This document shows positions 7,006 through 55,180 of a stretch of 64,000 nucleotides of DNA, in pieces. Every line of letters starts with the position of its first letter. Position 1 is the stretch's first letter. Position numbers and translations under genes: made by a program. The notes under the pieces were generated by a model. That model made no database searches. It had not been told where the DNA came from and saw only the letters and a list, made by a program, of their open reading frames with translations. The DNA comes from Eledone cirrhosa (Eukaryota): positions 376,154,001 through 376,218,000 of the forward strand of contig OZ024740.1 in NCBI GenBank assembly GCA_964016885.1. Reading direction: 5' to 3'.

Positions 7006-7920
7006 TTATTTCTAAATTTATAGATACATTTATAAATAGGCAGTTTGCTGACACCAGTAAATACTGACCTCTTCCCCCCCCCCACCTACTTTCTGTATCT
7101 GGATCTAAATATGTGTGGCAGTGTTTATGTGCGCGCATTAATGTCCATATGCTTATGATAATAGTATATACACATATATGTGTGTGGGGGTGTGTGTGTG
7201 TATGTATGTTCGTGGTTGTGTGTATGTTTATGCGTATACGCGCGTGTGTGTGTGAATGTATGTATATGTGTGAGTATATGAATGTGTATATATTTATTTT
7301 TATATTTATATGTTTATATGCGTATATGTATTTTATCTGTAGATTATAAACATACAGCGACATTAGCCCTGAATTTTTGTATTTACATACATCTTTTCGG
7401 CATGCGTATGCATGTGAACATATATTTTTATGCATATCTGTGAACGAAGTTACTTACATATATACACACACCTAACTGTATAAACTTTTTGTGTTTTCAT
7501 TGGTCAATTTGAACTCTGTTCCCAAACAGACCTGTAATTTTGAATTGTTGTTATTATCAATAAATATATTTCATTATTTCTGAAGACGGCATATATATGT
7601 GTTGGTATGTATATTTAATTTTGATAGTTTGTATAATTTTGTATAATTTTGTACATAGATCTGTTGAATATACATGCCAATTCTAACACATATATATCCT
7701 AGAAACGATCGTTAAATAATGAACTTTTTTTGTTTAATATAAGGAACTGTTTCATTGTTTTATTCATTATTTTTTTAATATTTTATCTTGACTCTGTATT
7801 CCGTTTATCTTTCACCGAAAGTGATTTTTCATTGCATCTCTTCTTTCCATGATATCCGGATTACATTGAGTTCTTCATACGGATTGGACACTACCGTAAA
7901 CTCTTGGTAGATTTATCTAC
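7005..7920 (+). mobile_element. Third, more diverged copy of the same pLTR plus 3' tail
   Basis: Direct copy of about 5520-6285 with substitutions and indels, followed by about 130 nt not present after the previous copy. Confidence 0.85.
7570..7723 (+). ncRNA. Type I hammerhead ribozyme
   Basis: TTCATTATTT-CTGAAGA...GAAAC-GATC-GTT-AAATAATGAA. Confidence 0.85.
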
Positions 7921-7951
7921 ATAATATGTATACATATGTATATATATATAT

Positions 7952-8555
7952 GTCACCAGTTGGTGCTACTGGTAACATGTATCCCAGTACAACCTGTCTC
8001 ATGGTCGGGTCGTTGGCGACTAAACTGGCAACCCCACCAAGGTTTCTTGGTGAGGAGGGTGACTTTGGACATCCTGCAGGACTAAAAACAAAACCTGTCA
8101 AAGGGCAAAGGAGCTCTTAAGAGTCAATGGCCATCCAAAATCACCGGGAGAGATGACCCCTTAGCCTTTGTCAAGGCAGATTTCTAGGAGAAGGAAAACT
8201 CTGATATAACACCTGCAACCCTGATGGTATCCAATGATGTTGACTTGTTCTTCTTTTTGGTAAATATCATCTTAGTTAAGAGAGTGGGACTGGCTTTGTG
8301 CAGTGCCTTTGCTCACTATAAAAGCTTCACGGCACAGGCATTACTTTATATCTGGAGAGCTCTCTGCACTTGTTGTCACATGGTACCATGGGCCCAGCAC
8401 TATGTATCAATAATTGTCACAAGTGTAGTGTTTGTACCAGAGTTTTCAAGTCGCTGGCTGGACTAAAAAGTCACACTTGTTCAGCGCATCGGTAGGGGTT
8501 CTCCTACATGGATATAAAGTAGTGGCCGTACTCGAAAACGAGTTTGCAGCCACCA
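7952..8555 (+). mobile_element. Probable 5' region of an RTE-type LINE (non-coding fragment)
   Basis: GC-richer island between microsatellites containing AGGAGAAGGAAAACTCTGA (about 8186-8204), a motif I recognise from RTE 5' UTRs. No intact ORF. Confidence 0.45.
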
Positions 8556-8899
8556 TATATATATGTGTGTGTGTGTGTGTGTGTTTGTGTATGTGTGTGT
8601 TTGTGTGTGTGTGTGTGTGCATATACGTTCCTGCATTTTTCCTTATTTGTCCATTCTTGCATATCGGGCTGCTTTTTTCAGTATCCTAGGCCAATTTCGC
8701 AATGAAACACACACATACCACACCTATAGACGACAGATGTAAGCTCTTTATTTATAGCTTTCCACTGTGTTAAGTCATTCGCTACATTCGGGATTTTCGG
8801 TTTCTAAGCATTTCAACTCATTTGACAATATATATATATATATACATATTTTTAAAATTTGTTTTGCATGATTTCTTATCTGAAAATGTGTGTTGAAAC

Positions 8900-9180
8900 A
8901 GATATTGTTATACTGTGAGAGGATCATGCTGCCAATAAAAACACACGCACCTGTTGGTTTTCAATTCAATTTATTATACATTTCCCATTGGTTGTTTCGA
9001 TAACCGGATGGTTGTTTATATATTATCAAAGCCCTTTCATCACACATTCTGTGACCTCCTCAGTGACTAGGTTTTTATTTTGTGTCTCTCATTGTTCCTG
9101 TCCTACACAGGATGATGAAGGACAGGACCAAGGAGAGACACAAAATATAAACCTAGTCACTGGGGTTGTCACAGAATGAT
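8900..9180 (-). mobile_element. PLE pLTR fragment (family W) with fold-back; HHR at 9025-9067
   Basis: Similar to 31515-31740 and 46745-46950. 9045-9104 is inverted at 9119-9178. Minus strand: GTCA-CTGAGGA-GGTCAC..GTGAT-GAAAG-GG-CTT-TGAT. Confidence 0.7.
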
Positions 9181-52519: not shown

Positions 52520-53612
52520 ATAATAAATAACAAAGAACGCCTATAGCATATGCATATCTTTACTTGCTAACATTGTTTCATCCGCACTATAAGTGGGACT
52601 CATCAGAGCATAAAGGTTAATTACATACCACACAAGCAATAACAAATCCAAGACATTGAAGAATGAAAAATAATAGAAGATAAAGGATATTAAGGAAGTA
52701 AAAGTAAAAATAAAAGTAAAAATAAAAATAAAAATAATAAAATAAACAATGAAAAATAAGGGGTGCTATCAGTCACAGTTGGGCGGGGTGCTGTCAACAT
52801 ATAGTTACATACAAGCATACACATGGATAAGAGAACAGACAAGAGTAGATAAGATAGATAGGATTAGGTAAGAGTAGGTAAAAAATAGGTGAAAAATAGG
52901 TAAAAAATAGACTTATAATATATATAAGAAAATATAAAAAAAAAAAAAATATATAAAAAAAATATTTAAAAAAAAATATAACAAACATACATATAAAATA
53001 TAAAATATACAGATAATAGTGATACAGGGTAAGGAATGAAATAAAATAATATAAAATTAAAATTAAAATTATATAAAATACAACATAATATAATATAATC
53101 ATAAAATAAGATAAAATAAGGTAAACTAAAATAAAATAAAATAGACTAAAATAAAATAATATAATATAAGATATAATTACATGTAATTAAATAAATAAAT
53201 AAATAAAATTAAATAAATAAATAAAATTAAAATTAAAATTAAATAAATAAATAAATAAATAAATAAATAAGTAAATAAATAAATAAATGAAATTAAATAA
53301 ATAAATAAATAAAATAAAATAAAATGAAATGAAATAAAATAAAATAAAATAAAGTAAATTGAGATAAGATATGTATTCTTTTAGAATATATCTCTTGAAT
53401 ATATCAGGGGCCCACGAAGGCACTAAGTGTCACAGTTGATGAGTCCCACTTATAGTGCGGATGAAACAATGTTAGCAAGTAAAGATATGCATATGCTATA
53501 GGCGTTCTTTGTTATTTATTATATCACCGCTCTGTCCTCAGACATCGAGCTAACCTTATACTGCCTGCTGGATAAGTGGAGTGTTATACACCCCTGATCC
53601 TCTCCCTAGTAT
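52520..53612. mobile_element. Fold-back PLE end (arms 52520-52605 / 53437-53524) plus 85-nt tail
   Basis: Exact inverted arms with an AT-rich UTR-like spacer. Confidence 0.85.
52565..52610 (-). ncRNA. Type I hammerhead ribozyme
   Basis: TGCT-CTGATGA-GTCC-CACTTATAGTGC-GGAT-GAAAC-AAT-GTT-AGCA. Confidence 0.85.
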
Positions 53613-54297
53613 AATATATATACATATATATATATATTATTGGCAACATGACCCTCCCAAAGTATAACAATATATATATATACACATATATATATACACA
53701 TGCATACATATACACACATCCACATACATACACATACATAAACATACAATAAAATAGATAGATGAATCTCATAGGTACATAACCCACGTACATATATACA
53801 CACATATACACACATATATATATATATATATATATACACACACACATGTATATATATACACACATACATGCATATATATATATATTTATATATATATACA
53901 CACACACATACCTATACATATTCACAAACACAAACACATACATGAATACATACACGTGCGTGTCTGTGTGTATATAAATATATAGGTAGACAAACTATAA
54001 CTACACATACGCTCGCGGGTGGGAGTATAAAAAGGGAAAGGTGTACCAAAATATGAAAAAATGAAAAGATGATATACTCCAGAAGACTTGTCGAGTGCTT
54101 CGAAATAGTTATAAATGTATATATTTTTGTTGAATAACCAACAAATTAAATATCCCTTTGCTTATATATACACACACACATATACATATAAATATATATA
54201 TATATATATATATATATATATATATATATATATATATATATATATATATATATATATATATATATATATATATAATGTATAATAAACAATACTATAT

Positions 54298-54375
54298 AAT
54301 TACCTCATTACCAGAGGTTTCCCGAATAAGACGAATACAAGAAACTTCCTCATTCGTTCGTCGGACAAGGCAATT
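54298..54375 (-). ncRNA. Hammerhead-like motif (U4C variant)
   Basis: AATTGCCTTGT-CCGACGA-aCGAATGAGG..TCTTATTCGg-GAAAC-CTCTG-GTA-ATGAGGTAATT. 11-bp stem I with G.U pairs. Confidence 0.65.
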
Positions 54376-55180
54376 TACAACAGTAAATTATTTGAAAAAT
54401 CTCCTCAAGAAAGGCAAAAGTTTAACGGGAAAAAAATATATATATATAAATAAAAGTAATGCAAGAGATATATAAAAATAAAATAAGGAAATATAGTTAG
54501 GGTATGTGTATAAATGTGTGTATATTCACTCCCAAATCTACATATGTGTGTATGTACAAATGCATGTGTATAGTGAAAGTATGTGTGCGTAAGTACATAT
54601 GTGAGGGCAAATATATCAGTGTATGTGTGACCACAAATACGTATATAATATATTTGAATATGAAATTCTTAGATAATATAGTTAAAGTAGATCCAGACTC
54701 AGGTATTAAGGATTGAAATATATACACATACAAGTATGAAAGCACGCGTATAAACACACACTCACGCGCGACCACATGCATGCGAGTGATATATACAGGG
54801 AAGGGTCTGTATCAGTCAAAGCAGTGTCAGTGTGAGGGTCGATACATATATAAAAATGAAAAAATATATGAGAATAAAAAATGAAAAAATTTAAAAATTT
54901 TAAAATTTAAAAATTAAAAATTAAAAATATTAAATGATAGAGAAAGTAAGAGGGAGAGGTTATCAATTATATAGTAACACTAGAAAAAATAGAAAACAAA
55001 CATAGGTTCGTACGTACACATATATATATATATATATATATATATACATGTAAAGTTATATTTAAAATTGTTGGGTTACAACTAGTAAATATTTATAACT
55101 GATATAAAAGCACTCGACAAATACTTGGAGTATATTTACAATATTAAATAAATGGAAAACTATATTTATAAAACCATATT

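Follow-up and report, generated by a model that had tools for sequence, protein, structure and literature searches.

Full-length Hydra-clade Penelope-like elements (PLEs) carry two copies of a small bulged hairpin between their hammerhead ribozyme and the start codon of their open reading frame (ORF), and each copy probably recruits one reverse transcriptase (RT) to the place where copying begins. The hairpin was encountered in a window of 64,000 nucleotides (nt) of the Eledone cirrhosa genome (assembly GCA_964016885.1, contig OZ024740.1, positions 376,154,001 to 376,218,000, forward strand), to which all plain coordinates below refer. An initial annotation of this window had described one hairpin downstream of the hammerhead. 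This hairpin is a real, covarying and clade-wide cis element, but the description had caught half of the arrangement: full-length elements hold a second hairpin in tandem ahead of the start codon. The two are designated hairpin 1 and hairpin 2.

All 13 hairpin stretches claimed in the initial annotation were found where it had placed them. The form it had given, RCTC followed by a stem of at least three base pairs, a loop, the complementary stem, TY and GAGY, holds strictly in 11 cases and imperfectly in two: the hairpin at 20693-20733 begins with TCTC, which breaks the outer pair, and the one listed as 26638-26663 truly starts at 26642 and reads GCTG with a TA bulge. For short loops, the window holds 13 motif matches against a mean of 0.17 and a maximum of 2 in 100 shuffles, and for loops of up to 70 nt it holds 17 against a shuffle mean of 0.96; one family contributes four copies to both counts, which also cover alternative registers. 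In a genome sample of 864 kb (the window plus loci L031-L110), chosen blind to the motif, 52 strict hairpins compare with one in the reversed sequence. Of these, 39 end 30-69 nt ahead of a (TA)4 tract, where the background would be about 1.6. The TY bulge of these 52 is far more common in the sample than the variants AY (6), CY (13), GY (2), TR (14) and other purine bulges (5). Genome-wide, a combined hammerhead-plus-hairpin pattern gave 45 matches and none in controls; one further pattern gave about 58,000 sites versus 42 in controls, mostly of one family among the matches listed. The covariance model R1 recovers nine of the 13 window instances, eight of these nine having been in its training set, and misses the three long-loop instances and that at 26642. 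The best 150 of 255 matches in an Rfam scan of the window were simple-repeat or palindrome matches below gathering scores, and no Rfam family matched the junction of the family labeled F0. For this F0 junction, no RNA data set containing it was listed. Self-comparison of the window was performed by masked self-BLAST, since (TA)n otherwise swamps the repeats. Satellite arrays with the hairpin inside 45-nt and 30-nt units were also seen (G000:C2:27995511-27996255, L209-L219; G000:C5:118173411-118173642).

Marine metagenome contigs were scanned as well and yielded 425 Hydra-like stretches, from which 79 loci were kept. Thirty-one hairpins from these contigs were chosen by their outer anchors alone. 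Their first inner pair is Watson-Crick in 28 cases (17 C-G, 11 U-A), a number never reached in 20,000 shuffles with a mean of 15.1, and the second and third pairs are so in 19 and 14 cases, respectively. The bulge reads UU in 20, UC in seven, UA in three and UG in one. The ACU that follows GAGC is conserved, in part as imposed by the anchors; without that requirement, ACT is present in 20 of 22. When 28 metagenome hairpins were aligned with eight from the window, 95.7% of the stem cells proved paired versus 81.2% in shuffles, and the covariation score was 0.368 versus 0.150, a value reached by none of 500 shuffles and by none of the slid controls (at most 0.154). That the closing pair covaries had been proposed before and is borne out in a set of 48 hairpins, where the outer pair is G-C in 34, A-U in 11 and different in three. 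In the conserved core, a 2-nt bulge on the 3' side, with U as its first base, separates a 4-bp stem from one to three inner pairs. The loop is variable, as the initial annotation had it, with a range of 3 to about 100 nt rather than 3 to 60 nt. As judged from sequence comparison, the motif is a conserved structured RNA with compensatory covariation across families.

The carriers had been taken for unrelated families. However, all eight of the 13 instances that could be typed belong to a single clade, the Hydra PLEs; no ORF is linked to the remaining five (20733, 26642, 37055, 37788 and 45559). The hairpins at 7791, 30727/52287, 42439, 53529 and 54076/55131 have full-length relatives that run into ORFs with the motifs RWR and SDKT. 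Features of the Hydra clade are a CxCX5C linker, an endonuclease (EN) with CxxC and CxH, a hammerhead in the pseudo-long terminal repeat (pLTR), insertion into (TA)n and a one-ended tail, as listed in part of the published description (PMC8557442). In the window, a single ORF with an RT followed by a C-terminal GIY-YIG-type EN is represented at 4150-5400, 22090-23540 and 56771-58048, and homologues with 30-39% identity were found. All three pieces show the CxCX5C linker, and the two with a complete end, 4150-5400 and 56771-58048, also an EN with CxxC and CxH and without CCHH. Cysteines are conserved in alignment A1; in the ORF copy at 22446-23540, one linker cysteine is changed and the end is cut short. 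RWR(A/T) and SDKT, an RWK-type motif and a DKT that replaces DKG, occur in full-length copies of F0, F1, F2, F8 and the 7791 family, and R37, W38, D117 and K118 are invariant in protein alignment A4. There is no insertion-in-fingers domain, the RT3-RT4 spacing of L195 and L196 matching published Hydra rows by eye, and the hairpin-bearing elements insert into (TA)n as Hydra elements do. The window ORF pieces gave no Pfam match, and the assignment to Hydra was made by motifs and alignment. A search of viral contigs found no relative.

The second hairpin comes into view at internal junctions, where a pLTR continues into the leader of the next ORF. Such full-length junctions of the F0, F1, F8, L223 and 7791 families show hairpin 2, followed each time by a Hydra ORF. 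The spacing from hairpin 1 to hairpin 2 is 54-138 nt over all families, namely 78 nt in F0, 91 in F1, 92 in F8, 90 in the L223 family, 138 in the 7791 family and 54-73 nt in most metagenome families. Family patterns that require RCTC after hairpin 1 or its tail gave 657, 585 and 318 matches against no control matches; among the matches listed, most share one offset, with some chance occurrences of RCTC in flanking sequence. For a generic pattern of two hairpins, 159 matches stand against 193 in the control; satellites dominate both, so that the count is not evidence, and the pattern served only as a source of F8 loci. Copies mostly end 2-5 nt ahead of hairpin 1, in which case they have no tail, or of hairpin 2, in which case they have one. 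What is known as the PLE tail is thus a single hairpin repeat unit and spans the interval from one end position to the other.

The ends of inserted copies follow the hairpins closely. The initial annotation had it that the hairpin marks where PLE copies start; the end concerned is in fact the element's 3' terminus, at which copying by the RT would begin. It had also let the partner copy of each element stop 2-6 nt 5' of the hairpin. For partners inside the window, we find about 4 nt at 7791, 26642, 45559 and 53529; at 37788 and 55131, TA blurs the position and the distance is 0-5 nt. Outside the window, relatives of 20733, 24679, 30727 and 52287 agree, and the search for tail-less relatives of 37055, 42439 and 54076 found none. 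When copies were mapped on full-length references, none of 122 passed through hairpin 2. When ends were mapped by the onset of TA, 94 of 126 fell within -8 to +1 of a hairpin. For F0 this holds for 52 of 62 ends, with modes at -5 from hairpin 1 (21 ends) and -3 from hairpin 2 (24 ends) and five more ends at -9; the corresponding figures are 25 of 28 for F1, four of four for F8 and four of five for the 7791 family. For the L223 family, mapping on full-length references placed 11 of 28 ends at -2 and nine at -3. Nine of 14 metagenome pairs of an internal and a terminal copy end 1-5 nt ahead of a hairpin; the other five comprise two internal pairs, one contig end, one diverged pair and L177/L178. 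For 33 of 39 hairpins, a TAT or ATA belonging to the element itself ends 2-6 nt upstream, compared with 3-16 in six upstream windows. Of 22 head-to-head arm pairs of F0, 20 have a single tail, two have none and no pair has two. All four F1 pairs have one tail, and the single pair of the L223 family has none. Most F0 arms extend beyond the hammerhead cut site to a point 51-70 nt ahead of hairpin 1, and the template was therefore uncut there. F0 tail copies number in the tens of thousands, many of them palindromic mini-inserts (L274-L303; 30659-30798 and 52220-52361 in the window), whose two arms both halt within the hammerhead, at the same distance of 51-70 nt from hairpin 1. This stop may be the 5' end of the transcript or a block to the RT.

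The distance of about 45-70 nt that had been given between hammerhead and hairpin agrees with 22 metagenome cases (40-64 nt from GAAA) and with the genome sample (52-56 nt when counted from the cut site). Of 69 strict hammerheads in the 864-kb sample, only four have a strict hairpin within 300 nt downstream and none upstream, because most hammerhead-bearing ends stop short of the hairpin or belong to other clades. Hammerhead cores lie in the window at 55238(-), 58703, 52606(-) and 37586(-). The hammerheads of F0 and at 26544 have a compensatory U3-A8 core variant (UUGANAA; e.g., L250:1385-1485 and window 26544-26581) and escape searches for CUGANGA; loop II is long in F0. Further repeat ends in (TA)n bear a hammerhead and are free of the motif in the window (28471-28732, 30918-31309, 17548-18085, 27487-27597, 35272-35492, 37897-38352 and 51720-52168); the family of the end at 27487-27597 (27493) carries the hairpin motif in L015.

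The motif extends beyond this genome. Among six Hydra consensus sequences in the supplement of PMC8557442, inspected by eye, it is clear in Hydra-2_Amil from a coral and in Hydra-2_Ajap and Hydra-1_Ajap from a sea cucumber, and Hydra-1_Ajap has it twice, in tandem. In the 79 metagenome loci, hammerheads lie 72 times in sense and once in antisense, and the loci form 32 families, of which 21 have hairpin 1 and ten have hairpin 2. Of the 11 families without hairpin 1, six enter (TA)n 34-57 nt past the cut site and three reach the contig end within 25 nt; two are unexplained or degenerate. One marine Hydra group (L114, L118, L128, L131, L161, L181) shows a third, degenerate RCTC..GAGT hairpin about 15 nt past the cut site, between the hammerhead and hairpin 1.

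The reading of the initial annotation, that the hairpin docks the RT and a UAUA anneals to nicked (TA)n, is partly supported, namely by covariation, by the fixed offset to one class of ends and by the TAT/ATA microhomology, but it had missed the second hairpin and the other class of ends. Taking these in, we consider it likely that Hydra PLEs carry twin bulged hairpins (RCUC-Y...R-UH-GAGY) between hammerhead and start codon, each of which docks one RT, with the UA-rich bases on its 5' side annealing to nicked (TA)n. The EN would cut both strands of (TA)n, and two RTs would bind a single RNA, one at each hairpin. The UA patch next to each hairpin on its 5' side would anneal to one cut (TA)n strand, so that one RT would start before hairpin 1 on one strand and the second before hairpin 2 on the other. 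Each would copy toward the 5' end of the RNA and leave its own hairpin uncopied. Joining of the two cDNAs would then give one tail-less arm and one arm with hairpin 1 plus spacer, matching the observed arms. A tail-bearing end after the ORF would need a read-through tandem transcript or a circularized monomer, because hairpin 2 is never copied at ends; tandem arrays with 3.5-kb spacing do exist among the matches listed. Short palindromic inserts would derive from the leader of an ordinary transcript. RT docking with annealing to (TA)n would fit the internal initiation by a Poseidon PLE in vitro, as reported in the text available for PMC11167929.

Several observations weigh against this proposal. 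RT binding and priming are candidate functions of the Hydra hairpins, with positional and comparative support. The protein tree of 20 families implies about four switches between C-G and U-A, a soft figure as only two of 17 branches are well supported. Wobble cells in the inner stems of 48 hairpins are G-U in six, A-C in one and other in three; the excess of G-U over A-C weakly favors the RNA strand, but the asymmetry, based on seven cells, is non-significant. TA-onset mapping placed 94 of the 126 ends at a hairpin, and the end set includes 30 F0-rich loci (L274-L303) that were selected for hairpin 1. This mapping fails for the L223 family (9 of 27) because of TA repeats in its loop. The F2 pattern gave only ten matches, and three F2 junctions show a plain 4-bp stem without bulge at the site of hairpin 2; this bulgeless stem carries a compensatory change. 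L177 lacks hairpin 2 past its tail end. In the same supplementary consensus set, Hydra-1_Crog is degenerate, Hydra-1_Amil ends ahead of the motif and Hydra-1_Obim is represented by left arms only. Finally, the Poseidon RNA used in vitro shows no RCUC/GAGY pair by eye, and its start site is reported, in the text available, to be non-homologous to the cut DNA (PMC11167929).

In principle, the same ends could arise if the motif worked as DNA. The GIY-YIG EN would recognize the RCTC...GAGY inverted repeat in a longer-than-unit cDNA and trim it at TA 2-5 nt away, and the ends would be cut sites. In line with this, the tail has been attributed to EN-mediated resolution of an intermediate (part of PMC8557442), the tail of the D. 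virilis element was needed for EN cleavage of plasmids, as recounted in sections of PMC11167929, and fixed offsets with TA at the ends suit an AT-preferring nuclease equally well. On the other hand, the one-sided UH bulge, the compensatory inner pairs, loops of 3 to about 100 nt and the excess of G-U suit a single-stranded fold and not a duplex site, and in the Poseidon study genomic ends coincide with RT start sites that were measured directly (PMC11167929, available text). We regard guidance of the EN on a DNA intermediate as the main rival, but as an unlikely one.

It is still less plausible that the hairpins bind an element protein for packaging or translational control and that starts are set by the nearest UA patch able to anneal to (TA)n, with no ruler involved. 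Hairpin 2 does lie close upstream of the start codon, binding for cis-preference would account for conservation, and TA patches are present at both sites. However, other TA patches in the leader are little used, and the loop of hairpin 1 in L223 contains TATATAT, yet tail ends map before hairpin 2. The sharpness of the offset within a family, with the F0 ends concentrated at one position before each hairpin, also speaks against it. A neutral origin of hairpin 2, as a side effect of tandem insertion in which the tail was duplicated, with ends inherited from founders, is very improbable and already largely refuted: PLEs do insert into their own pLTRs and tandem hairpin duplications are known (42430-43260 in the window; satellites), but the two hairpins of a given element have different loops and often different inner pairs, and the arrangement is kept in ten metagenome families and the sea-cucumber consensus with spacers that are unrelated between families, i.e., the core is conserved and the spacer is not.

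The elements studied here share their ORF features, pLTR hammerhead, (TA)n insertion, inverted and tandem copies and a tail at one end only with the Hydra clade as described by Craig et al. 2021 in the portions of PMC8557442 at hand. There, the tail is 30-40 bp and ascribed to resolution by the EN; here, it measures 54-138 nt and equals one hairpin repeat unit. The word hairpin is absent from the main text of that paper. Some units in our material exceed 3 kb, with tandem spacing of about 3.5 and 6.5-7 kb. The closest experimental counterpart is the Poseidon PLE of Anolis (PAc), the protein of which, a predicted dimer, cuts and extends both DNA strands (Frangieh et al. 2024; PMC11167929, cited here for the available text throughout). 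Internal initiation occurs at a pair of adjacent sites past the hammerhead, with the tail between them; the reaction requires RNA on the 3' side of the start (to +172), the template RNA is uncleaved, and hammerhead cleavage is dispensable (PMC11167929). PAc thus resembles the Hydra elements in its two tail-bracketing ends and its uncleaved template, as F0 arms also pass the cut site. It differs in that its starts lie in an AC-rich stem-loop inside the ORF without target homology, whereas those of Hydra would be located at UA patches of the leader that match the target, and no repeated motif is described for PAc in that text. Non-LTR retrozymes are hammerhead-bearing pieces derived from pLTRs and are thought to borrow PLE proteins, possibly via circular RNA; the texts at hand (PMC7229834; bioRxiv 10.64898/2026.07.22.740005) describe no conserved hairpin or start signal for them, and the Hydra elements here encode their own protein. 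A conserved or doubled hairpin was not found in the accessible literature, including text from PMC11167929, PMC8557442, PMC4209133, PMC7229834, PMC13282606 and bioRxiv 10.64898/2026.07.22.740005, with subscription journals, figures and some supplements outside this scope.

The tail and internal initiation were already known, and the putative new component is a conserved, doubled hairpin signal of the RT-recruiting type. Structured RNA recruits the RT and fixes the start of copying in the R2 3' UTR, the 3' stem-loops of LINEs and SINEs, hepadnavirus epsilon and telomerase RNA. These signals are single sites at the RNA 3' end, or their bulge templates priming. The Hydra hairpin differs in that it would lie 3' of an internal start, remain uncopied and be doubled to serve both target strands.

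In the window, hairpins and element pieces are arranged as follows. On the minus strand, the Hydra-clade ORF piece at 4150..5400 encodes the RT thumb, the CxCX5C linker and the GIY-YIG-type EN with CxxC and CxH in translation. It belongs to the family of the 7791 hairpin and is associated with the inverted repeat 1-667/5587-6253. A tail-less arm of this family (5733..6284, +) ends with TTTTAT fused to (TA)n, 4 nt short of the hairpin 1 site. Hairpin 1 itself, with a long loop, lies at 7791..7871 (+), and its tail reaches about 7925, 3 nt short of where hairpin 2 sits in full-length copies (L320-L322). The hairpin 1 with the broken outer pair (TCTC) at 20693..20733 (-), which has no linked ORF, has relatives in L248 and L249 whose ends lie 4 nt ahead of the hairpin. 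Translated ORF pieces from the RT core to the EN (22090..23540, +) lie upstream of the long-loop hairpin 1 at 24679..24747 (+), the L038 relative of which ends 4 nt before the hairpin. At 26544..26663 (+), a type I hammerhead with the U3-A8 core variant (from 26544) is combined with an imperfect hairpin 1 (26642-26663); its inverted partner ends near 24866, 4 nt short of the hairpin, and there is no linked ORF. Broken pieces of a LINE-type reverse transcriptase, unrelated to PLEs, occupy 12735-14528(-).

Hairpin 1 of F0 (Hydra) lies at 30727..30750 (+), with a full-length junction in L250. The hairpin 1 at 37055..37079 (+) has two possible registers, no linked ORF and no partner found. That at 37788..37812 (+), also without linked ORF, has a tail-less inverted partner at 37491-37772 with a hammerhead core at 37586(-). 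Hairpin 1 of F2 (Hydra; L327) at 42439..42457 (+) is accompanied by further F2 copies at 42966-42984(-), 43093-43111 and 43187-43205 and a cut copy near 42815-42847. The region 42405-43260 is a retrozyme-like tandem and inverted cluster of short F2 pieces, each the 3' half of the hammerhead plus hairpin 1, and one piece begins 2 nt past the hammerhead cut site. The inverted partner of the hairpin 1 at 45535..45559 (-), again without linked ORF, ends near 45838, 4 nt short of the hairpin. A further hairpin 1 at 45990..46023 (-) had been absent from the list in the initial annotation. At 52287..52361 (+), hairpin 1 of F0 (52287-52310) is followed by a tail whose last bases, GTTAT, are fused to (TA)n 3 nt short of the hairpin 2 site. 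The F8 (Hydra) piece at 53436..53613 (+) comprises the hammerhead, hairpin 1 (53529-53550) and a tail ending a few nucleotides before the hairpin 2 place; its tail-less partner ends near 52520(-), 4 nt short of hairpin 1. A short piece at 54076..54096 (+) holds hairpin 1 of the F1 group (Hydra) without upstream element sequence. The F1 (Hydra) element at 55112..55238 (-) has its hammerhead core at 55238, hairpin 1 at 55131-55112 and a tail ending near 55046; a Hydra-clade ORF piece (56771..58048, -) lies upstream of this hairpin, and the tail-less partner arm is found at 58457-58805(+).

Two non-Hydra PLE families of the window also have two end positions. In one (31526-33251(-), 46754-46941(-), 8919-9108(-); L332, L341), the ends are 58 nt apart, both at AAT|ATCG, and each is followed by a TATC...GATA stem by eye. 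In the other, a GxKF-type family with a CxxC linker (60490-63390(-); L307, L311, L315, L316), each end position is followed by a stem with the 3' arm GTGTATA, likewise by eye; many genomic copies of this type keep an open frame of 775 amino acids. When R1 was run on the junctions of a GxKF-type non-Hydra family (16 loci), it detected nothing but a nested F0 insert and one 13-bit match. The two families, with two ends and repeated stems, provide a lead that the twin arrangement is general. We tentatively raise the possibility, which we hold to be somewhat less than even, that all EN-positive PLEs insert two-headed, a dimeric RT-endonuclease on two tandem RNA hairpins of one transcript priming both strands of a double-strand cut and so giving rise to the tail, the inverted arms and the pLTRs, with a hairpin sequence that is clade-specific.

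The RTs of PLEs form the sister group of telomerase. How PLEs choose their RNA and their start site is an open question, and the in vitro study, in the text available, mapped the starts and not the signal (PMC11167929). A covarying element of 20 nt that would fix both starts within a few bases is a directly testable candidate for this signal and a minimal RNA for structure work. The hairpins give an exact rule for annotating element ends. If the proposal is true, the twin hairpins explain the one-sided tail and the palindromic mini-inserts, and the PLE protein could be aimed at a chosen RNA cargo.

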